Sequence record: MW394391.1
Reading direction: 5' to 3' (one strand)
Length of the DNA: 64,000 nucleotides
Source of the DNA: Klebsiella phage vB_KpM_FBKp24
Part shown: positions 1-21,050 of the stretch, in pieces
Layout of the letters: each line of letters starts with the position of its first letter
Position numbering within the stretch: the stretch's first letter is position 1
The notes under the pieces: generated by a model
Seen by the model: only the letters and a program-made list of their open reading frames with translations
Database searches by the model: none
Told to the model about the DNA's origin: nothing
Program-made: the position numbers and the translations under genes

Positions 1-2302
1 CTTTAAACGTACTATTGACGGGCAAATTCGAAAATCTTATAATGCCATTGGAGGTTTCGGACGTTGACCCTGACGTTAACTTAGTGCGATAGCATATTCT
101 AGCGCCCTTCAACTGAATAGGCGCTCTGGCACCGTAGGGAGAGACGCCATAGGTAGATCTTCCATACGTGTAAGTCGAACCGTCACTAGTAGGGTATGCT
201 AAATTATCCCAAACGTTGTAACTATTAGTTCCGCCTGCAGATGGAACAATAACAGAACCATCGGTATAACCATATTGGTTGTCGTCATTTTCCCAACGAA
301 CGTCGACTAATGCGTTTGTACTCTCGGTTACGAAAGTCCTTACTAAATCGCCGAAATTACCTTGTTTCACTCCGTCAAATCGAGTATGGACCGTACTCTC
401 TACAAAACCAGAATATGCTCTGACATAAAAGATTATTTGCGGATCATTAGTATATGTCGTCCCTACCCATCCACCAACGTCAAATGTCGAGGAATACATA
501 AACGCACGATCGGCACTATTACCACCGCCCAAGACAACTGCGCGACTTGACTTACCGACGGCAGAGCCAAAGTTAAAATAGTATCTCTTAACTGTTGTAC
601 CGTAGAAACTTTGCCAGGCTGATTTTGAATAAAAGAGAATACCCTGCAAACAATGACGTATGTTTAAGTTATCTGCATAGAAGTTTTCTGTCCAAGAAAT
701 CTCGTTGCAGACAACGACAGCGGCAGATAAAATGTAACCATGTGCGTGGAAATTAACTAGTTCGTTACCCCAGCCATCGGCGAATCTCGCAAAATGTAAG
801 GGGTTAACTTTGTCCTCACAAAATGCGTAGATCCCCGAAATCTTACCGGGGTTCCAGCAAGGGGCACCTGCGTTCGTGTTAAAGAATTTTATCCCGTACG
901 TTTCCCCGCTTGTGGCATATTTGTGATTTATTTTTACCGTGTCCATCCCTGTTCCATCACCACCTCGAATATGTAACGGGTAGTTAGTAACATCGATAGA
1001 AACGCTGCCGTAAAAGGTATACATTGTATTATTTGGCGGGATAATAATAAGAGGTATACCACCATCTCTTGAACATTTAACCGCGTTCTTTAACGGAGTT
1101 GTAATGTCACTACCTTCAGTAACTCCGTACTCTGAAAGATTAATTTCCCTTTTCTCCCTGATTCTCTCCCAGTAATACCCATTCCCAGCCGCGACTGTGC
1201 CTCCGTCATCGGTCCCTGTCCCTATATGCCCAATGAATTGACCCCCGCCCGAAGTACTCCCAGTGTAATACCCCTTCAGGTTTACTTTCTCGCCTTCAAA
1301 ATTAGGTCTTCTGTTTCTGAGATCATCGAAGGAGTTTACGCCGTAGAACCCCTGAACTACTTGCTCCAGGCTTACGCCGTAAGAAGTATTCACTTTGGTA
1401 GCGCCAGTTGTTTGGCCTAGCGTTAAGAGAACCTCAGCCGGCGTCCCTGATACCTGTGCGGTAATAATCGAGCGAGAACCACCGAGTAAGACTTCAACAA
1501 CGTCGTTCGCTTTCAGCGCTTTCGAAAGATTAATTTTCAGCCCGGTGCTGTCTACTTCGTAGTGTTTATTCAGAACTTGTTTTGAGCCGTTGATGTAAAT
1601 GGCAGGAACCGTACTGAACGTCCACGACGGGGTAAGCGATGTTTCCCCGCCCACTGCTGCGCCGTCGTTATATAACCACGTTACGTTGACGTAGTCAGTA
1701 ATCCCGGGTTCCACAGGCGTCACAGGAGTACCTGGGTATGGTCTGACGTAGAAGACAACGAAAGCACCGGCGGTTAATGCGCCTTTTAATTTTACTTTGT
1801 TCGATAACCGATCGAACGTATAGTTCAACCCTTTGAACTGATGTCCGCCATTCAAGAACATCTCTGAGACATCAAAACAGTCGAACGGTAACGCGATCTC
1901 TGTCTCGCCGCCGTTAGCAGAACCGTTGTTATACAGGTAGCTAACGTATGACGTATAGGAGCCGAATTTACCATCAGCCATCATTTTCCCGGTGCCGTAG
2001 ATAACCGGTGTATTGTCTTTATAAAGGGCTGTGGCAGAAGCACCGTTGACGTTAGTAAACGCAGCGACGTAGAATTGGCTCTCGTCGGTATAGACGTAGA
2101 AGATTTCATCTTTGACGGTGGCCGCAATACCTTCTGCGAGGGTTTCGTAAGCGTTTTCAAAGAGAAGGTTAGCGCGAAGATTATTTAGGGTGGTGCGGTA
2201 TGTTTCCTTTTCAGCGCCCGCTACTGCCACTGGCAATAGAGCAGATTCTGGAACAATACCCTTACTCGAAAGTTCGGAAATTTTTCTTGTGTTATTGGCC
2301 AT
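1..2302 (-). CDS. Tailspike/depolymerase-like protein A, partial (the window cuts off the C-terminal end). ATG at 2302.
   Basis: Hand translation from the minus-strand ATG at 2302 gives MANNTRKISELSSKGIVPESALLPVAVAGAEKETYRTTLNNLRANLLFENAYETLAEGIAATVKDEIFYVYTDES. This carries the same adaptor motif as the five other tailspikes. The frame stays open to the window edge. It is not in the ORF track because the stop codon lies outside the window. Confidence 0.6.
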   Translation of the reverse strand, partial: MANNTRKISELSSKGIVPESALLPVAVAGAEKETYRTTLNNLRANLLFENAYETLAEGIAATVKDEIFYVYTDESQFYVAAFTNVNGASATALYKDNTPVIYGTGKMMADGKFGSYTSYVSYLYNNGSANGGETEIALPFDCFDVSEMFLNGGHQFKGLNYTFDRLSNKVKLKGALTAGAFVVFYVRPYPGTPVTPVEPGITDYVNVTWLYNDGAAVGGETSLTPSWTFSTVPAIYINGSKQVLNKHYEVDSTGLKINLSKALKANDVVEVLLGGSRSIITAQVSGTPAEVLLTLGQTTGATKVNTSYGVSLEQVVQGFYGVNSFDDLRNRRPNFEGEKVNLKGYYTGSTSGGGQFIGHIGTGTDDGGTVAAGNGYYWERIREKREINLSEYGVTEGSDITTPLKNAVKCSRDGGIPLIIIPPNNTMYTFYGSVSIDVTNYPLHIRGGDGTGMDTVKINHKYATSGETYGIKFFNTNAGAPCWNPGKISGIYAFCEDKVNPLHFARFADGWGNELVNFHAHGYILSAAVVVCNEISWTENFYADNLNIRHCLQGILFYSKSAWQSFYGTTVKRYYFNFGSAVGKSSRAVVLGGGNSADRAFMYSSTFDVGGWVGTTYTNDPQIIFYVRAYSGFVESTVHTRFDGVKQGNFGDLVRTFVTESTNALVDVRWENDDNQYGYTDGSVIVPSAGGTNSYNVWDNLAYPTSDGSTYTYGRSTYGVSPYGARAPIQLKGARICYRTKLTSGSTSETSNGIIRFSNLPVNSTFK

Positions 2303-2340: not shown

Positions 2341-2357
2341 TAGTCATAGGAAAACAA
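2341..2357 (-). promoter_or_regulatory. Putative late-promoter element TTGTTTTCCTATGACTA (minus strand) upstream of tailspike A.
   Basis: It directly abuts hairpin 2358-2387. The TATG core lies 46 nt before the ATG at 2302. Confidence 0.4.
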
Positions 2358-2387
2358 ATAGAGAGGGGCCGAAAAGCCCCTCTCTAT
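2358..2387 (-). terminator. GC hairpin ATAGAGAGGGG-ccgaaaag-CCCCTCTCTAT, between tailspike B and tailspike A.
   Basis: Perfect 11-bp stem. It is followed on the minus strand by TTGTTTTCCTATGAC. Confidence 0.6.
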
Positions 2388-2469
2388 GATTATTGTTACA
2401 CACGTTATCACAAAGTTGAATTGTAATCAAAGCTTACAATTACCACAAATGTTTTCGCTTCCCTGTAAA

Positions 2470-4698
2470 TTAAATTAAGCTTTTCGCAATAACAGTAGGC
2501 GGCACATTAGCAATAGCTGCTGCAGTTACTGTCGCGGATGCGACGATATCGAGAATACCCGCGCCTGTTGTCGCATCAAACCTGACTACACGGTAAGTTC
2601 CGGTCGCGCCTGCGATGGAAATAAAAGCACCTTCGTAGAGTCCGTTTGGGTTTTGGAAAGTTACTGACCGACTACCACTGGTGGTGGTTACTGTACCGGA
2701 TATTGTATCTAACGTTCCCGAAAGTACAACTCTGTATTCGTTCCAGCGAGTCGCACTAGGCACCGTCGTTCGCACGATACTTCCCTGAATGTGGGTACCG
2801 CTGATAAGACCGGGGGCGCCAGTTAAGTCAGTTACCGTCTTATCTGGTCCGCGATAACCACCGTTATTGGTGCCAAAATAAATACCGCCATCCCCTACGT
2901 TGTTAGCGAAGAAGCTGTCAGGGTGAATAATATTCACGTTCACAAAACGCCCGTCGGTAGAAGTCCCAGTACGGTATTGATAAGGAGCAACGTTGTTAAC
3001 CATGTAGACAATTAAATCTGACATGTTAGCGCGAATCCAGAAGAAAGACCCTGCCGTAAAGCCAGAAAGTACGGATTTATTCCAATTACTTCCTCTATTG
3101 TTTGTCCAGCGCCAACGACCGGCTTTACTTGGAGTATAAGTGATTGTACTAGGGGTGTTATTCACCATTACAGCCCCGGACGAACCTTCGTCAAAATCAT
3201 TATTATCAAGAACAAAGATATTATCTACTTGTTGGAGATTGATCCAGTAACGCGCGTTGGTCGAACCTAATCGTTGATTTTTAAAGGTATTAGAACGAAC
3301 ATAAAGATTACTAATCCTTTGCCCTTCTCCACTAGTTACTTGGTTAATACCGCCGTAACAATTATCTGAAATATTATTTTCAAAATAAATATTATCATAG
3401 GTACAAGTACCTGTGTTCCAAGAACGAATGCGTAATGGACAGGTTTCAATATTACCTTCATTAGTGGAATAAATATTGAAAAACTGATTACCCTGAATAA
3501 CTATGTTTTTGATGTAAGCGCCGTTAGGGGAATTGTCGTCATTTGTCAAATAAACACCTGACTGTATCGAAGTATCGACCAAGTTATTTTTAATAATCAC
3601 ATTTTGCACGTACGTATACAACTTAAACGCGGCCTGTGTGTTTGAAACTTTGTTATCGCTGATCAGAGCATTGTTTACTGGATAATTAGGGTCGAAACTT
3701 CCGCATGAGATTGCGTCATCCCCCACTCGTTCCACTTTATTATTCTGTGCAGTGATGTCGGTTGTGCGATAAAAATGAATTCCATCAGTACCGGCCTTCA
3801 CCGTGTTACCGCCAATATGATCGTGAACGTAACAGTTACGTACAGTGACATTTTTAGAATAATCGAATTGAATACCGTAACCGATAGCATTGGCTTCGTC
3901 AACAAACTCAATCACACCATCGCCAGAGTTAGAAATATACAACGACTTAGGGCCAATTGTCCCAGTGTAACTATTGTAGTTAGGGCGGGTTATTTTAAAA
4001 TGACCAAAGTAGTGTCGGTACTTTGTTACGCTGACTGATTCCGAACCAATCCTAATTCCTTGTCCTAGATGGTTAATTCTGAACTCGGTCAGACTCATAC
4101 CGGCCCCTCTGAAAATGACTCCCTGAGTAGGGACTATGACTGGGGCGTCAAGACGATAGATACCTGGTTTTTGCTGGTAAATGACCTTACCGGAATTGAA
4201 AGCAGCAGTAACAGCGGAGCTACTATCAGTATTCCCGCTAGGGTCCGCACCATATTGTTCCAACGTCGCATATCCCAAAACATCCTCAAGATACCCTTTA
4301 TCTTGCAAAGGAATAATTTTAGTCCCGCCGACCTCACTAACGAGCGCAGCCGATGTTATCTTCCTACTTGTCGGTAATCTTACCTGATTATTGTCATATC
4401 CTAATACTGGGTTAGCAACGCCCGACACATTCTGATATTGCAACACCCACAGTTTTGCAACTGTTTCATAGACGAAGAAGACATCGCCCGACACAGTAGC
4501 ATCTAGTCCAGCGTCTACAGATAAGAAAGCGTTATCAAAGCCCAGAGTTTGGCGAAGATCGTTGATCTTAGTTGCTTTGGTAAATGCGACGCCTGCATCG
4601 GTCTTTGCGTTAATAGGGACGACGTCATTTTCTTTAATGACGCCTGCATCACCTAGTTCAGAAATTTTGATTCCAATGGAATCTGGCAATTTAGGCAT
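2470..4698 (-). CDS. Tailspike/depolymerase-like protein B (742 aa), beta-helix body.
   Basis: The N-terminus KISELGDAG...INDLRQTLGFDNAF...DVFFVYET matches the shared adaptor. The body is rich in N-, G- and V-containing repeats, typical of a right-handed beta-helix. A hairpin plus the TATGAT motif lies upstream. Confidence 0.75.
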   Translation of the reverse strand: MPKLPDSIGIKISELGDAGVIKENDVVPINAKTDAGVAFTKATKINDLRQTLGFDNAFLSVDAGLDATVSGDVFFVYETVAKLWVLQYQNVSGVANPVLGYDNNQVRLPTSRKITSAALVSEVGGTKIIPLQDKGYLEDVLGYATLEQYGADPSGNTDSSSAVTAAFNSGKVIYQQKPGIYRLDAPVIVPTQGVIFRGAGMSLTEFRINHLGQGIRIGSESVSVTKYRHYFGHFKITRPNYNSYTGTIGPKSLYISNSGDGVIEFVDEANAIGYGIQFDYSKNVTVRNCYVHDHIGGNTVKAGTDGIHFYRTTDITAQNNKVERVGDDAISCGSFDPNYPVNNALISDNKVSNTQAAFKLYTYVQNVIIKNNLVDTSIQSGVYLTNDDNSPNGAYIKNIVIQGNQFFNIYSTNEGNIETCPLRIRSWNTGTCTYDNIYFENNISDNCYGGINQVTSGEGQRISNLYVRSNTFKNQRLGSTNARYWINLQQVDNIFVLDNNDFDEGSSGAVMVNNTPSTITYTPSKAGRWRWTNNRGSNWNKSVLSGFTAGSFFWIRANMSDLIVYMVNNVAPYQYRTGTSTDGRFVNVNIIHPDSFFANNVGDGGIYFGTNNGGYRGPDKTVTDLTGAPGLISGTHIQGSIVRTTVPSATRWNEYRVVLSGTLDTISGTVTTTSGSRSVTFQNPNGLYEGAFISIAGATGTYRVVRFDATTGAGILDIVASATVTAAAIANVPPTVIAKSLI

Positions 4699-4724
4699 TT
4701 TTCCACCCTCAGGGTTAAAAGAAA

Positions 4725-4744
4725 GTTAATCATACGAAACAAAA
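4725..4744 (-). promoter_or_regulatory. Putative late-promoter element TTTTGTTTCGTATGATTAAC (minus strand) upstream of tailspike B.
   Basis: It abuts hairpin 4746-4769. TATG lies 36 nt before the ATG. Confidence 0.45.
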
Positions 4745-4745
4745 C

Positions 4746-4769
4746 TGAGAGGGGCGTAAACCCCTCTCA
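4746..4769. terminator. GC hairpin TGAGAGGGG-cgtaaa-CCCCTCTCA in the divergent spacer between tailspikes B and C. It belongs to the hairpin-promoter cassette and is not a terminator of either flanking gene.
   Basis: 9-bp stem. It is immediately followed on the minus strand by TTTTGTTTCGTATGATTAAC. Confidence 0.5.
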
Positions 4770-4861
4770 ACGTATGTTTAATAATGTTTCACTTGCAATG
4801 ACAGAACAGCGGTTGATAAATCGTGGGAGTATAACCAATCTTAATCACGGTCACGATAGTC

Positions 4862-4876
4862 AATGCTATGATACGA
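4862..4876 (+). promoter_or_regulatory. Putative late-promoter element AATGCTATGATACGA upstream of tailspike C.
   Basis: TATGAT lies 41 nt before the ATG. There is no adjacent hairpin, so this is a weaker match. Confidence 0.3.
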
Positions 4877-4907
4877 TTGACTATTAGAGACAATATAAGG
4901 TAAAATT

Positions 4908-7121
4908 ATGGCCAGTGAGATCTATGTAAAGCTCAGTGAAATGGATCGCCCATCAAAACCGGTAAACGATTCCGATCTGGTTTTTATTGCACAAAATGAA
5001 TCAGGGGTTGTTGAGTCTAAAGCGGCGGCCATCTCTGATCTGCGCGCGCTTCTTAATTTTGAAAATGCTTACACTACCACCACACTAGGTTTAGCCGATA
5101 CTGAAGCTAACCAAATCTTCTACGTTTTTGTCGATGCAACAAAAACGACAGTAAAATCTTATATTAATCGTAACGGCATCGCGGAGGCTATCCTTAACGC
5201 GGACGGCACTTTAAAAATCAATTACACTCTCGTCGGAATCGACGCTATTCAGAAAGAAATTAATTCCGTTTATTCCACGGGTGGGTCCAATAGCGTCGGT
5301 CATGTAAGAACAGAGATTGAGTCAAATTCAGCTAGTGTGGCAAAAACGCTGAACGGGCTCCCGGTTAACATTTGGGAATTTTCTAATTTAGTGACTAAAA
5401 AAGACAACCCGAATGATCCCTCTACTTGGGACTGGTCGCCAGCTGTAAGCGCAGCTATTGATAAGTGTATTTATCAAAAGCAAATTAATATCTCCAACGC
5501 ACAAAGATATTGTTCAGGTTGGCTCTTCTTCCCACCGGGAAAATATAGATTAGACAGTAAAATTGTCAAAGATTTAAGTTCTATTACGTACGAGACAGGT
5601 AAACCCCGTTTTAGGATTATGGGCCAAGGGGCTTACATTTCTTCTAATGTTAATAAGGATTATTTGTTAACGTTTACTGGTGGTAGATTGGAAATGGACG
5701 GAATAACGTTCATTAAAGAACCGGGTATTTTTGCTTACTACATTAAACTCGGAAGTGAAGTGACTGCTAACTCAATGGCCGTTGGCGGGAGATTCTCTAA
5801 TCTTAACTTCATGTCGCCCACTAAAGCGATAACCTTCGGTCAGTGTTACGATGCAGTATTTGATTGCATCTACATGACTGGGTTTGTTGCAGTTGACGAT
5901 AGCGATACAAATAACCCTGCGACGGGGATTCATATCTTACCTCAAGCCACGGACAACTCCAACAACATCGTGTTCATCAGACCACACATTGAAACGTCGT
6001 ACACTAAAAACTACATAGCTATTAAAGTAGATCCAACTTCTACCTCCAGTACACACCACAACATTAAATTTGAAGGCGGTCATATTGAGACGCACTTCTA
6101 CGGAGCGAAGTGGTTTAGTTTAGGCGGCGGTACTCAGTTTAATTTCGACACTGTAGTTTTTACAGACAACGGGTCAGGTGGTACGGATACTGCGGGCACT
6201 TACGAATTAGGGTACATCAACCAAGGGATTGTTAAATTTACCGGTTGTACTTTCCAAACACTAAGAAAATCTAGTGTTGCGTATGACAGTTCGATTCACA
6301 CTTCAATGATAAGGTTCGGATCTAGCACTAACACTGGTCGAATTTTCGACAGTTGCTATTTCTCATCGGCATTTTCCGAAGTCTCTGGTAACGGCACGAT
6401 CGCTCCGATTTTTGATGTCAGTGCAAGTACCCAGGGTAAAAGAGCGTACCAACTTATTAACTGCGCAATTAATAATTTTACCAGAAGAATATCAAGTGGT
6501 TTAATTCTTAATGATCTTAAAGTTGCGACAAGGAAATATATTGTCGATGTTGATAGTGACAACAATAGCGCCCTATCTATTTACTACACTAACACCGATG
6601 GATCTTTCAATCCAACTACTCCGATCCTTTCGGTGGCGCAAGATGGAACAATAAGTGGCTACCTCATTAAAACTACGGCTTCAATTTCAAGCGGAAATAT
6701 TCTCCAAATTGGGAATAACAATACTACTGCTGGCGATCGAAGACTGGATTTCTACCCGTACGGCAACACTACTTTAGGAGGTAGAATTTTACTTGGTAAC
6801 ACCGGACCGATGACTTTTACTAGTTATTTATCCGGTATGAACTTTGTTGCTAACGGAGGCGCTAGTCAGTTTAATTTCATGGGGTCAGTAGTACCGAATA
6901 GCAACGCGAACTATGACTTTGGTTCCGCAGCGCTTTCGTGGAAGAACGCTTACTTTACCGGGACTATAACTGTCAACGGTAATCCCGTAGGAGTTAAAGT
7001 AGCGGTACCTTCCTCGGCTACTTCGGCGGGTAGCGTTGGTCAATGGGCGGCTGATACAAATTATCTTTACGTTTGCATCGCCACAAATACTTGGGTGCGG
7101 TCAGCATTGACTACCTGGTAA
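4908..7121 (+). CDS. Tailspike/depolymerase-like protein C (737 aa).
   Basis: The N-terminus KLSEM...ISDLRALLNFENAY...IFYVFVDATKT is an adaptor variant. It has a beta-helix-like body with NN-rich repeats and an upstream TATGAT motif. Confidence 0.7.
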   Translation: MASEIYVKLSEMDRPSKPVNDSDLVFIAQNESGVVESKAAAISDLRALLNFENAYTTTTLGLADTEANQIFYVFVDATKTTVKSYINRNGIAEAILNADGTLKINYTLVGIDAIQKEINSVYSTGGSNSVGHVRTEIESNSASVAKTLNGLPVNIWEFSNLVTKKDNPNDPSTWDWSPAVSAAIDKCIYQKQINISNAQRYCSGWLFFPPGKYRLDSKIVKDLSSITYETGKPRFRIMGQGAYISSNVNKDYLLTFTGGRLEMDGITFIKEPGIFAYYIKLGSEVTANSMAVGGRFSNLNFMSPTKAITFGQCYDAVFDCIYMTGFVAVDDSDTNNPATGIHILPQATDNSNNIVFIRPHIETSYTKNYIAIKVDPTSTSSTHHNIKFEGGHIETHFYGAKWFSLGGGTQFNFDTVVFTDNGSGGTDTAGTYELGYINQGIVKFTGCTFQTLRKSSVAYDSSIHTSMIRFGSSTNTGRIFDSCYFSSAFSEVSGNGTIAPIFDVSASTQGKRAYQLINCAINNFTRRISSGLILNDLKVATRKYIVDVDSDNNSALSIYYTNTDGSFNPTTPILSVAQDGTISGYLIKTTASISSGNILQIGNNNTTAGDRRLDFYPYGNTTLGGRILLGNTGPMTFTSYLSGMNFVANGGASQFNFMGSVVPNSNANYDFGSAALSWKNAYFTGTITVNGNPVGVKVAVPSSATSAGSVGQWAADTNYLYVCIATNTWVRSALTTW

Positions 7122-7124
7122 CTC

Positions 7125-7154
7125 ATAGAGGAGGGCGAAATCGCCCTCCTCTAT
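7125..7154 (+). terminator. Hairpin ATAGAGGAGGGCGA-aa-TCGCCCTCCTCTAT after tailspike C.
   Basis: 14-bp stem followed by TTTGTTTCGTATGACC. Confidence 0.65.
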
Positions 7155-7170
7155 TTTGTTTCGTATGACC
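7155..7170 (+). promoter_or_regulatory. Putative late-promoter element TTTGTTTCGTATGACC upstream of tailspike D.
   Basis: It abuts hairpin 7125-7154. TATG lies 35 nt before the ATG. Confidence 0.45.
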
Positions 7171-7198
7171 ATTTTCAAATAATAACCGGAGCCAGATA

Positions 7199-9454
7199 AT
7201 GTCCGATATTTTTTCTCAAAAGATCTCTGAGTTACAGTCCAGTACAGGGCCGAGTGAAAACGCCTATTTCCCTCTTTCTGAAGCCAATAACGACTTCTCA
7301 GAGAAGGTGAGTATCACTACCTTAAGGGAAACTATTGGTTTTGAGAATGCTTTCCCTACCGTCGCTATTGCGTTACTGGCGACTAAAGAAAGCGACGTCT
7401 TCTTCGTTTATGAGGACGATAAAAAAGAAAACGTTTTGGGTTATGTCAATCAGGGTAACGGGAGTTATTCTGCCTTGATGACTGACAGTAACACTCAGCT
7501 GCGCTATGCTACAAGTAGCTTTGTTGTTAATAGTTTATTCTTTTTGCGGGGCGCGGAGAGTTTCGAAGAACTTAGAACAATTAAGCCATGGTACGAAGGA
7601 CAACGCATTAAACTTAAGAGTTACTACGTTAACGGTTTAACGGGTGGCGGTGAGTTTGTTGCGCGATTAACAGGCGGTGTAGATGACGGCGGTTTTATCG
7701 CGGCGGGAGAAGGGTATTATTGGGAACGTGCTGGCGATGAAATCTCACTTAACAATTACGGGGTCTATTATCAGGATATAAATGCAAACGGGAAAATTAA
7801 TTTCTCTAACGCCGTTCAATCTGCAATTAATAGGGCCAAAAATAAAAAGCTTCCGCTTATTACTAATTTCCCATCTGAAAACCATTACGTTAAAGGTGGG
7901 ATTTACCTCGAATCAGGTATTGATATTACAGGAATAAAATCGATCGAGGGGGCGTTACCCATTATCATCGATTCTTCCATTTTTACGGGTCTGAACGCTA
8001 TCGGTTACCCCGGTATAACATGGGTCCTGTTAAATATTAATGGCTCTTTAGGTACGGACGGTATGATATTCGGTACCAGTGTAGGTAATCAGACCCTTGA
8101 TACAATAGCGATAAGGGATCTTAATCCCAGATCAAAACCTTTAGGCGGGCAATTACACACTTTTTCTGGTACCACAATTAACGGTGCGCTTTGTGCTACC
8201 GGTTTTGATGGCCCTGGTGTTTATCTCTCAAACTGTTACGATTCTAATATTCAAGATATTCGGGCCATCGAATCAGGGAATATTTCTTGGTGGTCCATTT
8301 CGATAGATTCATATCCCAAAGACAGTACTTCTTCGCTGGACACCTCCAATCATTTAGTGATTGGGAGTATTGAACCTCACGATTGCCATGAACGAATTTT
8401 GAATGTCAACGCCTCCGCTTCCTCGGTCGACCATATACATGAAGAAGCGAGCTATGTAACGGACACAACTACTTGGGGTTCGGCTACGGTTTCTAGTAAC
8501 GGTTTTGGGTGGACGAACACGCTTCTGGCTGGTTGGTGTTCTCGCTTTGGTGTGGTAAGGGTTCTACCGAAGAGCACTAATACAGGAAAGCATGTAACGA
8601 CGGTAGTCTCAGATCAAATTTCTATCGATACTTTTCAGACAGAAGGGAACCTCGGCCTCCATTTCACTTATACAAACCCCGTGAAAGGTTCTTCGTACGG
8701 AACAATTGAAGTAGGTACCGATCTTTATATTACGACCAATGTTCCGGGTTCGATAGGTCATTGTTTAGTAAAAGGCGCTAATTCCGTCGTCACTCAGCTC
8801 AGTAAGAAACTTAATGTTAGATCAATGATGATCACGGGGTCTTCTTCATCACTTGTTGACTCTGGTGGCGTATACGGGAACTTAGAGGCTATTGTCGCAA
8901 CTATCGATAGCGGCGTAGTCAGTAAAGGTTCTATAACCACCTTAACGTCTACAGGAAGTACTTCCCTCTCTAACATCGGTATTGTTACTCTCACTTTAAA
9001 CGGGACACGGACAACGGTCAAAGATTGTTACATCAGTGGTGTTTCTAGTTTTTCTGGGGATGGAGTTGTATCAGGGACTACACTTGTTGGAGCAAGCAGT
9101 TTTTCTGGATCGTTTACTTGTTTCGGTATCAAAACAAACGCGAATTTATCTATCAGTAACACCTCTGCGCAGACATATAACTTCTCTTTACGTGATTCGT
9201 TTATTAATGGGCAACTTTCAATAACGAACTACGTTAAAGTGAACATCGACTTCGTCAGGGTCATTAATCTTTACATTTCCATTACTAGCGGATTCTTACT
9301 TCTTTCAAATATCCAAATGACCGGGTCATTAACGGGGAATGTAATAAGTTCAACCAACGTCCCGGCTTTGGGTTCTTCGACGACTGACCCTACTAATGGA
9401 AATAGTTACATTTTCCAATCTGGGGGTTGGAAAATGATAAATATAACTGCATAG
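7199..9454 (+). CDS. Tailspike/depolymerase-like protein D (751 aa).
   Basis: Adaptor sequence MSDIFSQKISEL...LRETIGFENAF...VFFVYED. It shares a further ~100-aa module with protein E (LRTIKPWYEGQRIKLKSYYVNGLTGGGEFVA). A hairpin plus TTTCGTATGACC sits 35 nt upstream. Confidence 0.75.
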   Translation: MSDIFSQKISELQSSTGPSENAYFPLSEANNDFSEKVSITTLRETIGFENAFPTVAIALLATKESDVFFVYEDDKKENVLGYVNQGNGSYSALMTDSNTQLRYATSSFVVNSLFFLRGAESFEELRTIKPWYEGQRIKLKSYYVNGLTGGGEFVARLTGGVDDGGFIAAGEGYYWERAGDEISLNNYGVYYQDINANGKINFSNAVQSAINRAKNKKLPLITNFPSENHYVKGGIYLESGIDITGIKSIEGALPIIIDSSIFTGLNAIGYPGITWVLLNINGSLGTDGMIFGTSVGNQTLDTIAIRDLNPRSKPLGGQLHTFSGTTINGALCATGFDGPGVYLSNCYDSNIQDIRAIESGNISWWSISIDSYPKDSTSSLDTSNHLVIGSIEPHDCHERILNVNASASSVDHIHEEASYVTDTTTWGSATVSSNGFGWTNTLLAGWCSRFGVVRVLPKSTNTGKHVTTVVSDQISIDTFQTEGNLGLHFTYTNPVKGSSYGTIEVGTDLYITTNVPGSIGHCLVKGANSVVTQLSKKLNVRSMMITGSSSSLVDSGGVYGNLEAIVATIDSGVVSKGSITTLTSTGSTSLSNIGIVTLTLNGTRTTVKDCYISGVSSFSGDGVVSGTTLVGASSFSGSFTCFGIKTNANLSISNTSAQTYNFSLRDSFINGQLSITNYVKVNIDFVRVINLYISITSGFLLLSNIQMTGSLTGNVISSTNVPALGSSTTDPTNGNSYIFQSGGWKMINITA

Positions 9455-9456
9455 TT

Positions 9457-9490
9457 AAAAACTCAGTCCTAAAAAGGACTGAGTTTTTTA
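9457..9490. terminator. Hairpin AAAAACTCAGTCCT-aaaa-AGGACTGAGTTTTTT after tailspike D.
   Basis: 10-bp stem flanked by an A tract and a T tract, giving rho-independent terminator geometry in both directions. Confidence 0.7.
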
Positions 9491-9500
9491 TATGACCACC
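9485..9500 (+). promoter_or_regulatory. Putative late-promoter element TTTTTTATATGACCACC upstream of tailspike E.
   Basis: It overlaps the T tract of hairpin 9457-9490. TATG lies 29 nt before the ATG. Confidence 0.4.
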
Positions 9501-9519
9501 TCCATTCAGGATTAAAGAC

Positions 9520-11559
9520 ATGTCTAATGAAACACAGAAAATTAGCGAGTTGAACCCTGCTACTACGCTGACTGAACACACTCTGTTCCCCGTGGTCTCT
9601 GAACAGACGGAGACCAGTAACACAGATATCTCGACACTGCGTTCAGTCTTGTTGTTCGACAAAGCTTTCAACTCAATCGCAGAAGGTACAGATGGAACGG
9701 AGAAAGGAGAGTCTTATTTTGTTTACACGGATGCAACCAAAACCGCGGTACAGGGTTACGTCAACCAAGGTGGGGGTTCTTACACGCCACTTGTAGATAT
9801 CAATGGCGTCGCAGTCCGGTATATCTCCGGGCAGACGCTACGAGGGTTAGATTATTTTACTAACGGCGTAGATTCCTTCGCTAAGTTACGGACACTATCG
9901 CCTCTATACGCTGGGCAACGCGTAAAGTTGAAAAGTTGGGTAGCGGGTGGAAAAACAGGTGGTGGGGAATTTATCGCCGGAATCGGATCGGCGACGGATG
10001 ACAACGGCACGATTGCCGCCGGGAATGGATTCTACTGGCAACGGATTATTTCCGATCGGTTGTCTTTTGAGGATTTCGGTGCGGTCGGGGATGGTGTACT
10101 GGACGATACCAGTAACATTCAAAAAGCGGTCAACTACTGTGCTAAGAACGGCATTGCACTAACGTGTTTAGGGAAAGTCTACGCAGTCAGTACCGTAAAT
10201 TTCCCAACCGATTTAGTGATCGATATGTGTAACGCGGTACTTTTGTCGTTACCCTCTGTTACGACGGGTTATACCTTAACAATCAGCGGTTATTTGTCTC
10301 CTGCGGCTAATCCAGGAAAATTTGATAATATTCGTGTTCAGCGTACCTTAATTAATACTCATCAGCCCGACACTAACAGCGTCGTAGACGGCGTGTCATT
10401 TGGAGTTGATGCGCACAATATTTCCTTCTATAATCTCAAGGTCTCTGGGTTTAGGGACGGAGTTTGTTTTAACGGGAAAAGTGCTTATCTCATTCGTTTA
10501 TACAGCCCGATCATTGGGCAGTGTTGGCGCCGAGGGATGGCCTTTTATGCGAATACTGATTCCAATGAAAACGTGACCATTTACGGCGGCGTGATTGCGG
10601 ATTGTTGTAATTTCACTTTCGACGGTACTGGGGTCTACTTATCAGGGAGTGCCTCAAGTATTGATGTCAGGTTCTTTGGGACCAGTTTTGATTATTGCGA
10701 CATCTCAGTTGATCTTTATCAATCTAACGTCGAGCTTCACGGTTGTCACTTGGAAAACAATAATAACAACCCCCATATTCGACTTTCGTACACCTCAACC
10801 AAAAACCAACCCTATCTGATCATGAAAGGGGGAACAATGGGAGGCGGACCGAACGCGAACTCGTGGAGCGGTATTCCGATAGAAAATAGTACGGGTCGTC
10901 CTTACCTCGTCTTCATTACCAACACTGGCGGTGCCCACGTTGACATTGATGGAACTGACACCAGTAAATACATGACAGGAGTCAGGAGAACTACCGAGAT
11001 CGTAGGTGTAGAGGGCGATAACTACCAGTTGATCGGGACCTTAAGGGTGAGGAACAAAATGACCTCTGGGAACATGGATAACGCCAGTCGCCCCATGCGA
11101 CCTTGTAGTGCCCTTAACGTGATTCTGATCAACCAATATCAAACTGCCGCATGGACACCGAGTTACACTAACGCTGACCTCACTTATACGATTGATACTA
11201 CGAATTACTCTAACCCTAATTCACCGCACTCACGAAAAATTACACAAGGAAGCGTACGTAATGTCTCTTACTGGCAGGACGTGACACTGCGCGGCGGAGA
11301 TATTTTCCACGCGGAGGCCGAAATCAAAATCACATCATTGACGGCTGGTTACGTCGCGCTTAGAGTGGATTTTTACGACTCTGCCGGGAACGTAATACAA
11401 TCGTCAATCAAATCCGTATCTGCGGTGACGGCTGATTGGAATAACGTGTGGGTCTGGTTACGCGCACCAAACGGTACAGTCAAGGCAAAAGTTCAAGAGT
11501 ACTTAAACGGTTTTGTCGGAACGGCGTATTTCACCAATGAACACGTTTGGATTTCTTAA
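9520..11559 (+). CDS. Tailspike/depolymerase-like protein E (679 aa), pectate-lyase-superfamily-like body.
   Basis: MSNETQKISEL adaptor. FEDFGAVGDGVLDDTSNIQKAVNYCAKNG is a classic pectate_lyase_3 / tailspike N-cap motif. A hairpin plus TATATGACC lies upstream. Confidence 0.8.
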   Translation: MSNETQKISELNPATTLTEHTLFPVVSEQTETSNTDISTLRSVLLFDKAFNSIAEGTDGTEKGESYFVYTDATKTAVQGYVNQGGGSYTPLVDINGVAVRYISGQTLRGLDYFTNGVDSFAKLRTLSPLYAGQRVKLKSWVAGGKTGGGEFIAGIGSATDDNGTIAAGNGFYWQRIISDRLSFEDFGAVGDGVLDDTSNIQKAVNYCAKNGIALTCLGKVYAVSTVNFPTDLVIDMCNAVLLSLPSVTTGYTLTISGYLSPAANPGKFDNIRVQRTLINTHQPDTNSVVDGVSFGVDAHNISFYNLKVSGFRDGVCFNGKSAYLIRLYSPIIGQCWRRGMAFYANTDSNENVTIYGGVIADCCNFTFDGTGVYLSGSASSIDVRFFGTSFDYCDISVDLYQSNVELHGCHLENNNNNPHIRLSYTSTKNQPYLIMKGGTMGGGPNANSWSGIPIENSTGRPYLVFITNTGGAHVDIDGTDTSKYMTGVRRTTEIVGVEGDNYQLIGTLRVRNKMTSGNMDNASRPMRPCSALNVILINQYQTAAWTPSYTNADLTYTIDTTNYSNPNSPHSRKITQGSVRNVSYWQDVTLRGGDIFHAEAEIKITSLTAGYVALRVDFYDSAGNVIQSSIKSVSAVTADWNNVWVWLRAPNGTVKAKVQEYLNGFVGTAYFTNEHVWIS

Positions 11560-11572
11560 GAAGGAACTCACT

Positions 11573-11794
11573 ATGTTTCAAGTAGGCGACACCGTTCGCA
11601 TCCTTTCTTGTCAAACTCGAGAAGACTTAGTCGGGAAAGAAACGACCATCAGTGCACTGGACGCTAAACTGGAAGATTTGGCTTGGGCAGATATCTACGG
11701 AATGGATCAATATATTTCGGTGGTCATCGATACCGATGCACGATTTATTGCGGCTCAACTGGAACTCGTAGCCAGTGACATTGAAGGCTCTTAA
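11573..11794 (+). CDS. Small hypothetical protein (73 aa) between tailspikes E and F.
   Basis: The ATG at 11573 is preceded by AAGAAGGAACTCACT, which serves as an RBS. The ORF ends just before the 11801 hairpin. The track's start at 11513 overlaps the end of gene E. Confidence 0.35.
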   Translation: MFQVGDTVRILSCQTREDLVGKETTISALDAKLEDLAWADIYGMDQYISVVIDTDARFIAAQLELVASDIEGS

Positions 11795-11800
11795 GCTATA

Positions 11801-11832
11801 GGCAATGAGGGGACCTAGGTCCCCTCATTGCC
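11801..11832 (+). terminator. Hairpin GGCAATGAGGGGACC-ta-GGTCCCCTCATTGCC after tailspike E and the small ORF.
   Basis: 15-bp perfect stem followed by TTGTTTCGTATGACC. Confidence 0.65.
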
Positions 11833-11847
11833 TTGTTTCGTATGACC
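11832..11847 (+). promoter_or_regulatory. Putative late-promoter element CTTGTTTCGTATGACC upstream of tailspike F.
   Basis: Identical 12-mer to the tailspike-D element. It abuts hairpin 11801-11832. TATG lies 33 nt before the ATG. Confidence 0.45.
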
Positions 11848-11873
11848 GGTTAGCTTTCTTCAGGAAAACAAAT

Positions 11874-13868
11874 ATGTCTAATGATACTCAAAAAATTTCG
11901 GAATTAGGGAGTGCGACTAGCATCCCTGAGAACTCAATGGTCCCTATAGTGACGGCTCCTACCGAAACGAATCAGATCACTCTTTCTTCGTTGCGCTCAG
12001 TATTAAATTTCGAAAGTGCTTTTGATACTATCGAATTAGGATTGGCCGGAACAAAAAAGAACGAACCCTTCTTCGTTTACACTGATGATACGCGGTCGTT
12101 TGTTAACGGGTATATCAACCAAGGAGGTGACACTTTTGCATCGCTTCTCGATAAGGACGGTAAGCAAATCAATAATGTTGTTTACAGTAAAATCATTGGG
12201 AGCGTTTATCGTGGATTTGTTACCGGGCTCTGTCAGAACGCTGGGTTTGCAAACGATAACATTGTCGTCTTAAAGAAAGGGTTAGTGCTCTCGGGAATCA
12301 TGGTAGTCATCGACACTACTTCGCTCCGTTTTTATTTCAGCAACAATTCGACACTCACTGTTGACCATTGGACGCAGAGCGGCGATGACCTTGTGGCGAC
12401 GGATTCCTCAGGGAATAACGTTATACTAGTAGACGGTTGGTCACAGTTATTAACGGGCGGTACTCTCCCTGTTGACGTAAGAAGCGAGACTATTGATTTC
12501 TGGGAAAGAATTAAAACCAACGGGCAATTTGATCTGACAGCTAGGCCAAACGACCCGAAAGGAATTGCAGGTATCGTTTTTGGCGGTAAGAATAACAAAG
12601 GTGCGTTGGTTATTGACCAGCGAGGTCGTCTCCAAACCTATGCGATTAAAAATGGTGTCATGTCGGCGGCCAGAATGGCCATCCCTGTAACGGAACCTTA
12701 CGGTTATGGCACCGGGTCACGGTTAGGAAGTATCACTCGCTTCCCGGTCAGTGGCGCGGAAGACGATAGTCTCTCTTCTTCTATTATTTTTCTACCTCAA
12801 GCAGATGGATCGGCGAAAGCATATTTGGCGGGGCCAGGACTATATACAAACTTTGCTGCGCCTTTTCCTGATGCCGTAAAACGCGTAGCTAAAGAGATTG
12901 TTACAGCCGACCTTTTACCAAGTGCTTTATTGAATTCTTCTACAAACCCAACCGATTGGCTCAGCACAGAGTCTTGGGTTAAATTAGTGACGGTCAATGA
13001 CAATATTCAGGGTTCAGTATTCAGCGGTATTTATTCCGGTGGGGCGGGTTTATCAGAAGCTGTATGTGCTTACTTGATTGAGTTCCAATCGAAACCGTCG
13101 AACGTGACCACGGTCAACGCAAACACACTGCGCTACTACCTTAGAATTACGTCGCTCCGTTCTCGGGGAGATCTGCGTTACAACTCAGGAACGGTACGTT
13201 TTGGGGTGGTGCGAGATGCTACGGCTAATACTTCGACACTTTATGCGCGCTTAGCGGTTCGTTCTGAGAACTCTTCCCTTATCCCTTTGCGCGCTGATCC
13301 GCCTGGTTCCGATGGCGTCGCGAAAGTAACCATCAATACTGTATTAAACAGCTATGTTACGGTTGAGCCAGCCGGGATCGTATATCTTCCCGTTACGGAG
13401 TCGCTGACTACCAACGTCGCTGTTCAGCTCAATAATGGGACGTATGCTCAGACACGCGGAGCGGTGATTCGATTGACGAATAATCTTTCAGCCAACACCC
13501 GAGGATCCTTCGTTACCTCGGGGGAATTCGCCGCAAACGATACTTTATCTGCTATCAACCGGGGCTACGCCGGGCTAGGAGCAGTGACGGCTGCCCGAGT
13601 ATCAACAGGGAAATATACGATCACAGGAGCCTCTACAGGAACTTCCTCGGTTTCTTGGAAAATTACGTCACCATTTGGATCGTTTGGCTCCGGTATTCAG
13701 AATTTGGTGGCGGTAATCGAATCAGATGTTTCTAATGTCATTACCGTAGGCGTGAGAAAAATTCTTTATACCGCGGATACTACTACAGGCGCGGTCACGA
13801 CATCATTAGGGGATTATGTTGACATCCCAGTTGACACTTGGATCGATATTCATACTACGCTCAACTGA
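11874..13868 (+). CDS. Tailspike/depolymerase-like protein F (664 aa from the corrected start).
   Basis: MSNDTQKISELGSATSIPE...LRSVLNFESAF...FFVYTDD adaptor. The track's start at 11805 lies inside the terminator hairpin. The true ATG at 11874 sits 33 nt after TATGACC. Confidence 0.75.
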   Translation: MSNDTQKISELGSATSIPENSMVPIVTAPTETNQITLSSLRSVLNFESAFDTIELGLAGTKKNEPFFVYTDDTRSFVNGYINQGGDTFASLLDKDGKQINNVVYSKIIGSVYRGFVTGLCQNAGFANDNIVVLKKGLVLSGIMVVIDTTSLRFYFSNNSTLTVDHWTQSGDDLVATDSSGNNVILVDGWSQLLTGGTLPVDVRSETIDFWERIKTNGQFDLTARPNDPKGIAGIVFGGKNNKGALVIDQRGRLQTYAIKNGVMSAARMAIPVTEPYGYGTGSRLGSITRFPVSGAEDDSLSSSIIFLPQADGSAKAYLAGPGLYTNFAAPFPDAVKRVAKEIVTADLLPSALLNSSTNPTDWLSTESWVKLVTVNDNIQGSVFSGIYSGGAGLSEAVCAYLIEFQSKPSNVTTVNANTLRYYLRITSLRSRGDLRYNSGTVRFGVVRDATANTSTLYARLAVRSENSSLIPLRADPPGSDGVAKVTINTVLNSYVTVEPAGIVYLPVTESLTTNVAVQLNNGTYAQTRGAVIRLTNNLSANTRGSFVTSGEFAANDTLSAINRGYAGLGAVTAARVSTGKYTITGASTGTSSVSWKITSPFGSFGSGIQNLVAVIESDVSNVITVGVRKILYTADTTTGAVTTSLGDYVDIPVDTWIDIHTTLN

Positions 13869-13879
13869 TTGAGGTTTAA

Positions 13880-15551: not shown

Positions 15552-15583
15552 ACAGACAGAGGGGCATGAGCCCCTCTGTCTGT
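15552..15583. terminator. Bidirectional terminator ACAGACAGAGGGG-catgag-CCCCTCTGTCTGT between convergent genes.
   Basis: 13-bp stem between the plus-strand 553-aa gene and the minus-strand 203-aa gene. T tracts follow on both strands. Confidence 0.7.
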
Positions 15584-19226: not shown

Positions 19227-19958
19227 TTAGTTTGAAACGGCTCCGAGACACTCAAAGAGATAACCCGACATGAATTCTGCCGATGACGGATTGGTGTATT
19301 GACCGCCGACATTATCCGAACGACGAATGGCAGAATAAATGTCAGCGAAGGCGGTAGCTTTTGCATCGTCAAATACGACCTTCAGAAGCCCTCTACGGGT
19401 CGCAGCATAAAAGTCAGCCGCTTCTACTGCCTCAGCGACAAAATCGCTGACAAAGCTTTCTTGGTCGTTATATTGGTCAACTACCAGCGGATGTGCATTT
19501 TTCAACAGGACGTAAAACTCCCTGCCGATGGAACTCATTATTTCCGTGCGCTGATCGACTTGAGTTTGAAATGACTTATACAGTTCGTTACTGTACGAGG
19601 TCACCCAGTTGGTACCGATCTGCCGAGCCTCTTCACGGAACTTGGTTTCTGGGCTGAGGTAATACCCGATCCCTTCGGTCAACGTCAAGTAGCTCAACGC
19701 ATTGGGTTGATTAAAGTCAACGTTCAAGTGAAGAACGTTACCTTCTACTCTATAAGTCTGAACGTCAGGGTCGCTGACAATCGAAATGTCTTCCAGTTGG
19801 TATTTCTCACTGATTGCGTGCATTGCATAAACAAACACTTGACCAGGAGTAAAAATCCCTTCGATCGTTTCTTTCACAGTTTGTGCTAATGCGATATTGA
19901 ATTGATTCGCATTTGAGTTAATGCCTTTCAGACCGTTTAACAGGCTGGATGCTTGCAT
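19227..19958 (-). CDS. Hypothetical protein (243 aa).
   Basis: ORF. A TATG-containing motif lies 40 nt upstream. Confidence 0.5.
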   Translation of the reverse strand: MQASSLLNGLKGINSNANQFNIALAQTVKETIEGIFTPGQVFVYAMHAISEKYQLEDISIVSDPDVQTYRVEGNVLHLNVDFNQPNALSYLTLTEGIGYYLSPETKFREEARQIGTNWVTSYSNELYKSFQTQVDQRTEIMSSIGREFYVLLKNAHPLVVDQYNDQESFVSDFVAEAVEAADFYAATRRGLLKVVFDDAKATAFADIYSAIRRSDNVGGQYTNPSSAEFMSGYLFECLGAVSN

Positions 19959-19989: not shown

Positions 19990-20007
19990 CTTTACATATT
20001 AGAAAAC
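19990..20007 (-). promoter_or_regulatory. Related element GTTTTCTAATATGTAAAG (minus strand) upstream of the 243-aa gene.
   Basis: GTTTTC..TATG lies 40 nt before the ATG, downstream of hairpin 20053-20079. Confidence 0.25.
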
Positions 20008-20052
20008 GCACTGTAAAGTTTAAAAGATTACGTACTGCTAGTTATAGAGCAT

Positions 20053-21042: not shown

Positions 21043-21050
21043 GATAAAAT

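Follow-up and report, generated by a model that had tools for sequence, protein, structure and literature searches.

Putative terminator and late-promoter junctions preceding the tailspike genes of a phiKZ-like Klebsiella jumbo phage

Late transcription in phage phiKZ is initiated at a minimal TATG promoter, in which the G is the start site (+1), by the non-virion RNA polymerase, nvRNAP (Yakunina 2015, PMC4666361; de Martin Garrido 2026, PMC12809450); the late promoters are also treated in Ceyssens 2014, as cited by others. Conserved intrinsic terminators have been described for phiKZ and 201phi2-1 (Putzeys 2024, PMC10914365; PMC11512511), those of phiKZ having a CCYCCCC-loop-GGGRRGG stem with TTATK immediately after it. 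Small terminator/promoter composites repeated between genes are known from T4-type phages as promoter-early stem-loop (PeSL) cassettes (Arbiol 2010, PMC2839356; Comeau 2014, PMC4122927). PeSLs are found where the genomes are most plastic and border the segments that have been inserted, deleted or replaced between one phage and its relatives; genes are reshuffled when copies recombine, and mini-circles have been demonstrated. The stem-loop often overlaps the promoter, which is sigma-70-like, early and read by the host polymerase, and the genes beside the cassettes are mostly small and without assigned function. In the promoters of the phage N4 virion RNA polymerase, a hairpin with a short stem of 5–7 bp and a 3-nt loop is itself the recognition element.

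The window (the whole 64-kb stretch of DNA that was analysed) comes from a phiKZ-like, nucleus-forming Klebsiella jumbo phage. It encodes beta-like subunits of a virion RNA polymerase (vRNAP), and its closest relative, vB_KpM_Centimanus (98.5% identity over window positions 20000–44000, the part compared), has genes for the nuclear shell protein and PhuZ. Homologues of four of the five phiKZ nvRNAP subunits, the four covered by the search, were located in Centimanus, outside the 64-kb window: gp74 (E 9e-68), gp71-73 (3e-81), gp55 (1e-63) and gp123 (5e-68, 27.5% identity). As judged from Centimanus, the lineage resembles phiKZ in encoding nvRNAP subunits, including a homologue of the TATG-binding subunit gp123. 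Genes of Centimanus and of relatives lacking annotation were called with a simple ORF caller. An earlier note on this DNA, written from the letters alone, had assumed a phiKZ-like phage and named TATG as the minimal late promoter of phiKZ, and was correct on both counts.

Five of the six adaptor-bearing tailspike genes were preceded by a long perfect hairpin (−19.4 to −30.3 kcal/mol), a T-tract and TATGAC or TATGAT. The composite element had been described in the earlier note, and all coordinates agree with the sequence, as does the observation that tailspike C has the TATGAT core alone (4867–4872), about 98 nt past a hairpin. All six genes have an upstream TATG at 26–43 nt from the start codon, the start site itself being predicted only. 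The features, with the tailspike genes lettered A to F and each hairpin named after the gene that follows it, were:

2–2302, minus strand: tailspike A, start 2302, continuing beyond the window edge; N-terminal adaptor conserved.
2343–2357, minus strand: predicted late promoter of A, T-tract TTGTTTTCC and TATGAC; predicted +1 at G 2345; 43-nt leader.
2358–2387, minus strand: hairpin A, 12–13 bp perfect stem ATAGAGAGGGGC/GCCCCTCTCTAT, −23.5 kcal/mol, z −5.6; putative terminator of tailspike B, adjoining the A promoter on its upstream side.
2470–4698, minus strand: tailspike B, start 4698; right-handed beta-helix.
4729–4745, minus strand: predicted late promoter of B, GTTTTGTTTCG and TATGAT; predicted +1 at G 4731; 33-nt leader.
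4746–4769, minus strand: hairpin B, an 'orphan' in the divergent spacer, −19.9 kcal/mol, z −6.4; terminator-like T-tract on the minus strand, upstream gene end absent.
4857–4883, plus strand: promoter region of C, TATGAT 4867–4872 with predicted +1 at G 4870, inside the loop of an inverted repeat TAGTCAAT / ATTGACTA; −9.7 kcal/mol, z −3.5.
4908–7121, plus strand: tailspike C, start 4908; inverted relative to four relatives.
7125–7154, plus strand: hairpin D, 13-bp perfect stem, −25.2 kcal/mol, z −7.3; putative terminator of tailspike C.
7155–7169, plus strand: predicted late promoter of D, TTTGTTTCG and TATGAC (7164–7169); predicted +1 at G 7167; 32-nt leader.
7199–9454, plus strand: tailspike D, start 7199.
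9457–9488, plus strand: hairpin E, 14-bp stem with A/T extensions, −19.4 kcal/mol, z −6.7; putative terminator of tailspike D.
9489–9496, plus strand: predicted late promoter of E, TA and TATGAC (9491–9496); predicted +1 at G 9494; 26-nt leader.
9520–11559, plus strand: tailspike E, start 9520.
11800–11833, plus strand: hairpin F, 15-bp perfect stem, −30.3 kcal/mol, z −7.1; putative terminator of the unit of tailspike E and a 73-aa ORF.
11834–11846, plus strand: predicted late promoter of F (and G), TGTTTCG and TATGAC (11841–11846); predicted +1 at G 11844; 30-nt leader.
11874–13868, plus strand: tailspike F, start 11874.
15552–15583, unstranded: hairpin between convergent genes, ending the plus-strand arm of the cluster; no TATG after it.

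The seventh large gene of the cluster, G (13880–15541), begins 11 nt past F without a cassette and is probably co-transcribed with F. Among five orthologues, hairpin A showed one compensatory change (G-C to A-T), and the TTGTTTTCC-TATGAC of A was identical at the orthologous junctions of five relatives. The arms of the inverted repeat at the C promoter were retained in three relatives, where the loop was different yet contained TATG.

The motif TTT[CGT][CGT]TATGA[CT] occurred four times in the 64 kb, each time in an intergenic tailspike cassette (0.2 intergenic copies expected, p = 4e-6). The exact 13-mer TTGTTTCGTATGA was present three times, and an exact 15-mer was common to cassette copies. 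Neither bare TATGAC (28 found, 27 expected) nor sigma-70-like sites (37 found, 36.1 expected) were over-represented in the window. Perfect hairpins with a stem of at least 9 bp numbered 22, against 1.4 in simulated sequence, and 18 were intergenic; the folding energies of the five cassette hairpins gave z-scores of −5.6 to −7.3. Stem sequences varied among loci and phages while pairing stayed perfect. All cassette hairpins have the anatomy of an intrinsic terminator: a stable stem-loop that contains G+C, with T-rich sequence after it on the transcribed strand. Four of the five were reported with T-tails in a terminator scan, for which hairpin E was too poor in G-C pairs. Hairpins A, D, E and F lie downstream of a transcription unit, and hairpin B does not.

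These data suggest, with a probability that we put at roughly 70%, that in the cassette the upstream unit ends at an intrinsic terminator directly followed by a phiKZ-type late promoter, that the arrangement is used genome-wide for virion genes, and that its tailspike copies mark sites of exchange. 'Terminator then late promoter', as the earlier note had proposed, is the best reading of the sequence. The long perfect hairpin and its TTTGTTT-type T-tract would stop the transcript of the upstream tailspike unit; a few bases on, TATG(A)(C) would be the initiator for the phage's own non-virion RNA polymerase, with transcription starting at the G, and the leader of 26–43 nt would bear the ribosome-binding site. 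With a terminator and a late promoter at the junctions, each tailspike gene or short gene group would form its own late transcription unit.

The putative promoters resemble those of phiKZ in that a minimal TATG initiator lies a few tens of bases upstream of virion genes. TATG is frequent elsewhere in the genome, as in phiKZ, and is therefore not sufficient alone. Unlike in phiKZ, positions +2 and +3 were also conserved (TATGAC at 17 of 22 distinct tailspike junctions; among the other candidates, A at +2 in 11 of 18 and C at +3 in 10 of 18), and the motif, its start sites here being predicted, often stands directly behind a terminator T-tract. As in phiKZ and 201phi2-1, many sequence-related, very stable intergenic stem-loops occur across the jumbo genome, some of them bidirectional between convergent genes. 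The stem and TTATK motif of the phiKZ terminators was not found in these stem-loops, however: the 5′ arm is purine-rich, with arms of the GAGAGGGG / CCCCTCTC type, the perfect stems are longer (9–16 bp), and an ordinary T-tract (TTTGTTT) follows, with TATG 2–10 nt past the stem.

The earlier note had tied the layout to the tailspike genes. This specificity did not hold, as many other virion genes across the genome are preceded by it too, and neither the hairpins nor TATG are confined to tailspikes. The weaker copies that it listed do exist on the minus strand, at 19995–20009 and 21030–21042, within two arrangements:

21030–21081, minus strand: hairpin 21048–21081, a 14-nt T-rich tract, and TATG (21033–21030) 56 nt before gene 20285–20974.
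19995–20078, minus strand: hairpin 20054–20078, and TATG (19998–19995) 37 nt before gene 19227–19958.

In the former, the hairpin (with compensatory changes) and TATG were both retained in four diverged relatives, and the distance from TATG to the gene was kept in relatives about 77% identical despite differing flanks. In Centimanus, 24 of 102 TATGAC copies were intergenic (8.4 expected, p = 2e-6), and 17 of the 24 lay 15–70 nt before a start codon. The genes so preceded included those for the major head protein, tail sheath, internal head protein, a tail protein and tail fibres, often with a hairpin directly before the motif. TATG frequency was maximal at 30–39 nt upstream of start codons, and TATG was also present in the intergenic region corresponding to the phiKZ promoter P119L. 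The other 78 of the 102 copies lay in coding sequence. Bare TATG and TATGAC thus occur often within genes, and a promoter cannot be recognised from the motif by itself, which is also the case in phiKZ.

TATG was also found just after hairpin sides that serve a terminator only. In Centimanus this was the case at 9 of 48 such sides (2.1 expected), a 4-fold enrichment, and in a 90-kb sample of phiKZ at 15 of 26, where TATG lay 0–12 nt past the stem and nearly always at 0–3 nt. Since these hairpins lack a downstream gene start, the association of hairpin and TATG could belong in part to termination. One conceivable link is that one polymerase pocket reads the TATG twice: in elongation, a gp123-like lobe would catch the non-template TATG and pause the enzyme for hairpin-driven release of the RNA, with restart at that same TATG; separately, the cassettes would be recombination substrates that shuffle and invert tailspike genes in nucleus-forming phages. 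If true, polymerase would be handed from one tailspike gene to the next, and this would account both for TTATG in phiKZ terminators even between convergent genes and for the tolerance of the orphan hairpin-TATG pair. We regard this elaboration as unlikely.

It is likewise unlikely that the TATG beside the hairpin is a terminator part and no promoter at all, with transcription of the tailspike genes starting from other promoters or running through them as a single long operon with attenuators. There is a precedent in phiKZ, for which the published consensus is a hairpin followed by YTTATKYYGT, that is, TTAT(G/T) directly past the stem, and the terminator-only sides just described agree with it. 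However, the tailspike cassettes of six phages have a normal T-tract between stem and TATG, at a spacing of 0–10 nt as against mostly 0–3 nt in phiKZ. Many early-region hairpins with a T-tract, moreover, have no TATG. TATGAC following a hairpin was found mostly at sides with a downstream gene start (9, against 1 terminator-only and 1 antisense). The motif and its leader accompany the downstream gene behind unrelated hairpins, TATGAC was retained without a hairpin in the KpSz_1 spacer, and no hairpin adjoins it in front of the major head and tail sheath genes.

Homology blocks (blastn) shared with relatives started or stopped at a hairpin edge or at TATGA, with ends at 2386–2392, 7126, 7168, 9485–9491 and 11834. 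At the A junction, the blocks of all five relatives stopped at 2386–2392, and the block of gene C ended at 7168. For E, homology with five relatives began at 9485–9491 behind differing hairpins, and the identical set of E promoter, leader and adaptor stood behind four different hairpins. At F, a KpLz_1_41 block started at 11834, and the same hairpin F recurred before different downstream genes in three relatives; three different genes follow it. The C-terminal part of tailspike E, together with ORF 11573–11794, was 94% identical with three relatives. Between relatives, the hairpin often goes with the upstream gene, and TATGAC and the 5′ UTR with the downstream gene; some tailspike genes of relatives have a hairpin and no TATG.

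Since homology blocks stop at the cassettes, these behave like the PeSL cassettes of T4-type phages: both are small composites of promoter and terminator stem-loop repeated between genes, and copies of both mark where segments have been replaced or rearranged from one related genome to another. Break points between genes are to some extent expected in any case, as recombinants with broken genes would be lost. The cassettes differ from PeSLs in three respects: in place of a sigma-70-like promoter they conserve TATGAC, which would be a late promoter of the TATG type, read by a multisubunit polymerase that the phage encodes; the stem-loop lies upstream; and the cargo consists of host-range tailspike genes. 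The closer likeness among tailspike cassettes (TTTGTTTCGTATGAC) would arise because the genes are paralogous and the cassettes are places of module exchange between related phages.

The earlier note had suggested instead that hairpin and motif form one self-contained mobile cassette, which travelled whole with each tailspike gene on its acquisition or duplication. The A hairpin, promoter and N-terminal region are indeed one conserved block in five of five relatives, and the block stops at the hairpin's outer edge; hairpin D has a homologue in the degenerate hairpin that precedes the D-type genes of relatives, and the shared 15-mer would also fit. Movement in one piece nevertheless appears improbable given the partition of hairpin and motif between neighbouring genes, seen at E and F, where homology begins past the hairpin. 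Unrelated virion genes across the genome are preceded by the same architecture, and the tailspike-cluster genes showed neither a gene for a transposase, integrase or homing endonuclease nor a target-site duplication.

Gene C was inverted with respect to both flanks in four relatives. It is bracketed by an inverted repeat (left arm 4730–4756, right arm 7142–7168; 27 nt, 85% complementary, 2385 nt apart), so that the gene may have been flipped between two inverted cassette copies. Hairpin B is homologous to the hairpin at the C-to-B junction of relatives. The flip would have left the hairpin at 4746–4769 with nothing to terminate, as the earlier note had rightly remarked of it, and we explain this hairpin as a probable relic of the inversion. 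In the divergent spacer, the hairpin is intact in the window and probably also in Centimanus; it was degenerate in three relatives (−11.6 kcal/mol, z −1.65) and absent in KpSz_1 (z −1.4), while all four kept GTTTCGTATGACC.

This pattern bears on the alternative, also raised in the earlier note, that the hairpin contributes to promoter recognition, either as a cruciform or as a DNA hairpin of the kind used by the N4 virion polymerase. Such a role would explain why a hairpin is kept where nothing needs terminating, as in the intact spacer. The hairpin abuts TATG at about 35 tailspike junctions in six phages, beside the predicted start of a phage-encoded polymerase as in N4, and a phiKZ late promoter must be specified by something more than TATG. 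Retention of GTTTCGTATGACC where the hairpin has decayed argues against it, however, as do the hairpin-free candidate late promoters of the major head, tail sheath and gp119 homologue genes. The phiKZ promoter P119L has no upstream hairpin, and its −53 to +51 fragment is active in vitro (PMC4666361). The distance from stem to TATG ranges from 0 to 14 nt, and promoter and hairpin assort independently among phages. Unlike in N4, the stems are 9–15 bp long, relatives can do without the hairpin and the polymerase has several subunits. The promoter thus probably does not include the hairpin, and the alternative seems very unlikely.

That the shared sequence is a functionless leftover of recent tandem duplication can hardly be right: the tailspike genes are paralogous, their N-terminal adaptors are related, and their cassettes are more alike than other candidate late promoters, but the leaders from TATGAC to the start codon and the hairpin sequences have wholly diverged while the T-tract, TATGAC and perfect pairing were retained, the stems carry compensatory changes, and the motif stands at intergenic positions only.

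The cluster of large genes is divergent, with A and B on the minus strand and C to G on the plus strand. The tailspikes A to F carry related N-terminal adaptors of ~100-130 residues, and in relatives these genes are annotated as tail fibre proteins or EPS depolymerases.

Large genes of the tailspike cluster and the ORF lying among them
Start 2302, running off the window, minus strand: tailspike A, N-terminal adaptor
2470-4698, minus strand: tailspike B, right-handed beta-helix
4908-7121, plus strand: tailspike C
7199-9454, plus strand: tailspike D
9520-11559, plus strand: tailspike E, weak pectate-lyase-like match
11573-11794, plus strand: 73-aa ORF between E and F, without Pfam match
11874-13868, plus strand: tailspike F
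13880-15541, plus strand: gene G, 553 aa, without the shared adaptor

Base-by-base verification of the coordinates placed a long hairpin with perfect pairing, then a T-rich tract and TATGAC or TATGAT (together, the cassette) before A, B, D, E and F, and TATGAT only before C, as the earlier note had described. Start codons follow the G of TATG at 26-43 nt, equivalent to the 29-46 nt reported there, which were counted from the T. The 11-nt spacer between F and G (13869-13879) has neither hairpin nor TATG, and G is probably co-transcribed with F. Several tailspike genes of relatives have a hairpin without TATG, in spacers of 37-55 nt.

The composite element exceeds chance. The pattern TTT[CGT][CGT]TATGA[CT] has four copies in 64 kb, all of them intergenic and in cassettes, against 0.2 expected in intergenic DNA. 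The 13-mer TTGTTTCGTATGA has three exact copies in the window, and one 15-mer is also repeated exactly among the cassettes. The five cassette hairpins fold with -19.4 to -30.3 kcal/mol (z-scores -5.6 to -7.3). Bare TATGAC is not over-represented in the window (28 observed, 27 expected), so that information resides only in its position and context. Orthologues of hairpin A (hairpins are named after the downstream gene) show one compensatory pair in five sequences, a formal covariation that is weak alone; that many different stems all remain perfectly paired is the stronger argument. An Rfam scan of window 1-22000 (E <= 1) gave only sub-threshold chance matches, none at the cassettes, and a scan for sigma-70 promoters found no excess. 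Searching IMG/VR with TTTGTTTCGTATGACCA returned 27 loci and no new junctions: 24 represent one conserved, apparently coding sequence on unrelated contigs; two others are likewise unrelated, and the remaining locus belongs to a relative already known. None of the 26 unrelated loci has a hairpin.

Two virion-type RNA polymerase subunits, both beta-like, are encoded in the window. Its closest relative, Klebsiella phage vB_KpM_Centimanus (OZ240615.1, 300 kb; hereafter Centimanus), shares 98.5% identity with it over 24 kb; for the Siatvirus group (KpLz-2_45, KpSz_1, KpLz_1_41, LPKP23) the identity is ~77%. Centimanus has a nuclear shell protein, PhuZ tubulin and homologues of four of the five subunits of the phiKZ non-virion RNA polymerase (gp74, gp71-73, gp55 and gp123). 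The gp123 homologue was identified via synteny with phiKZ and adjoins the major head gene, as it does in phiKZ; comparison of CENTIMANUS_00088 and window ORF 45135-45914 with PDB sequences yielded no gp123 homologue. Late promoters of phiKZ consist of a bare TATG with initiation at the G (PMC4666361, PMC12809450), in agreement with the minimal promoter given in the earlier note, and gp123 binds TATG on the non-template strand (PMC12809450). Promoters and terminators are not mentioned in a published study of related Klebsiella jumbo phages.

Neither hairpins nor TATGAC are specific to tailspike genes. The window contains 22 perfect hairpins with stems of at least 9 bp, compared with 1.4 in simulated sequence; 18 are intergenic, and they are spread along the entire 64 kb. 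Centimanus has 97 intergenic hairpins of this kind. A whole-genome motif search in Centimanus found 24 of 102 TATGAC copies to be intergenic (8.4 expected), 17 of these 24 lying 15-70 nt before a start codon. Among the genes behind these sites are those for the tail sheath and tail fibres, the major head protein, an internal head protein and a tail protein. Several of the sites directly follow a hairpin, as does ...GGTAGGTTTG-TATGAC upstream of the internal head gene. The same layout occurs before window genes 20285-20974 and 19227-19958; for the former, four ~77%-identical relatives retain the hairpin, which carries compensatory changes, as well as a TATG at an unchanged distance, while the flanks differ. 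Early-gene regions have many hairpins with T-tracts but without TATG. On both strands of Centimanus, TATG (1262 copies; TATC, 2888; TATT, 3627) is, jointly with its reverse complement CATA, the rarest of eleven tetranucleotides counted, depleted in genes and enriched in intergenic DNA (163, 103 expected). This distribution fits selection against stray start sites, on counts not controlled for dinucleotide bias.

The recurrence of the layout before many virion genes, together with early hairpins that have no TATG, suggests that the cassette combines a terminator with a late promoter. The best reading is that the terminator of the upstream unit is followed immediately by a phiKZ-type late promoter: the hairpin and T-tract would end the upstream transcript, and late transcription would start at the G of TATG directly behind. 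T-rich-TATGAC reads as an extended late-promoter consensus. From sequence and comparison we infer termination, initiation at the G, late timing and, as discussed below, recombination within the cassette.

The hairpin is probably not itself part of the promoter, although the earlier note had allowed that it might contribute to promoter recognition. No hairpin accompanies the candidate late promoters of the major head, tail sheath and gp119 homologue genes, phiKZ P119L has none upstream either, and P119L is active in vitro on a short linear fragment (PMC4666361). The gap between stem and TATG ranges from 0 to 14 nt. The divergent spacer provides a natural deletion series: its hairpin is degenerate in three relatives (-11.6 kcal/mol, z -1.65) and absent from KpSz_1, yet GTTTCGTATGACC and the downstream leader are retained in all four.

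TATG could alternatively belong to the terminator rather than to a promoter. In Centimanus, TATG follows the hairpin on 9 of 48 terminator-only sides, those lacking a downstream gene start (2.1 expected). In phiKZ (NC_004629, 105000-195000), it lies within 12 nt of the stem on 15 of 26 terminator-only sides between convergent genes, nearly always 0-3 nt after it, as GCCCTCCC-loop-GGGAGGGC-tTATGyygt. Thus the terminator consensus published for phiKZ, ending YTTATKYYGT (PMC10914365, PMC11512511), contains the late-promoter tetranucleotide, and the association of hairpin and TATG may in part belong to termination. For the tailspike cassettes we consider this explanation unlikely, however, since a normal T-tract separates stem from TATG, and TATGAC is inherited with the downstream gene and persists without the hairpin. 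The enrichment may be a sign that the phage polymerase also pauses or stops at TATG, which would feed into a reading of the cassette as a stop-and-restart site.

Comparison of the window with five relatives by blastn gives homology blocks that end at cassettes (2386-2392, 7126, 7168, 9485-9491 and 11834) and also within genes, at the boundary between adaptor and receptor-binding part (1163-1338, 4364, 7669-7730 and 9995-10044). Intergenic break points are partly expected, because recombinants survive only with intact genes. The earlier note envisaged a mobile terminator-late-promoter cassette that moved with each gene. This holds only partly. For A, hairpin, promoter and N-terminus are indeed inherited together as one block. 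For E and F, however, homology begins after the hairpin; four different hairpins precede one and the same E promoter and leader, and three different genes follow hairpin F, which is preceded by the 73-aa ORF. This indicates that hairpin and promoter assort independently, with the short shared T-tract-TATGAC as the junction; a single mobile unit is not supported. The 73-aa ORF travels with the receptor-binding part and may encode an assembly helper. Block 9995-11897, comprising the C-terminal part of E, this ORF and hairpin F, is 94% identical to three relatives, in which it is attached to another adaptor, of D type. The nearest described system is the promoter-early stem-loop of T4-type phages, a composite terminator/promoter motif through which modules are shuffled (PMC2839356, PMC4122927), but promoter class, polymerase, geometry and cargo all differ.

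The hairpin in the divergent spacer, which the earlier note recognised as having nothing to terminate, can be accounted for by inversion of C between inverted cassette copies. In all four Siatvirus relatives, C is on the strand of B and directly upstream of it, a hairpin that would terminate C lies between the two, and a D-type gene adjoins the divergent spacer. HSP orientations show an inversion of C in the window with respect to both flanks. On either side of C lies one arm of the region's best inverted repeat, 4730-4756 / 7142-7168 (27 nt, 85% complementary), and each arm consists of half a hairpin together with TTTTGTTTCGTATGA. The difference in orientation and the repeat around C are observed; we infer that recombination between the cassette copies was the actual event. 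Such recombination would flip C, and each flip would always leave a single orphan hairpin in the divergent spacer. In the relatives, the degenerate orphan hairpin resembles a chimera of two different stems.

Across six related phages the cluster offers ~35 junctions (22 distinct sequences), each with T-tract and TATGAC and including natural variants with and without hairpin. They can serve directly as test templates and yield an extended consensus for a nucleus-forming phage of enterobacteria. The data suggest that nucleus-forming phages may re-assort capsule-specific tailspikes by exchange at two kinds of site, short conserved terminator/promoter junctions and the border of adaptor and receptor-binding domain, which bears on host range in Klebsiella therapy phages. 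None of these findings overturns current understanding.

Further features were observed beside the cassettes. An 8-bp inverted repeat, TAGTCAAT / ATTGACTA (window 4857-4883; -9.7 kcal/mol, z -3.5), holds the TATGAT of tailspike C in its loop. KpLz-2_45, LPKP23 and KpLz_1_41 keep the arms and retain TATG in a different loop, and the repeat looks like an operator or regulatory site at the sole hairpin-less tailspike promoter. Gene calls at window 45806-46500 are ambiguous, with ORFs overlapping on both strands, and the Centimanus counterpart (37952-38326) is unannotated; an adjacent 223-aa ORF, labelled RNA polymerase beta subunit, had no matches among solved structures. Outside the window, the Centimanus record has an annotated tRNA with anticodon tta (OZ240615.1, 121400-121483) among the phage tRNA genes, which was read as a suppressor of stop codons. 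A three-copy family, caATATATACatcaaaNaaACTGCATTTCGATt, absent from the window, occurs in Centimanus at 172334, 193991 and 216870, in divergent spacers ahead of plus-strand genes and 6-9 nt before a TATG, and may represent another promoter class.
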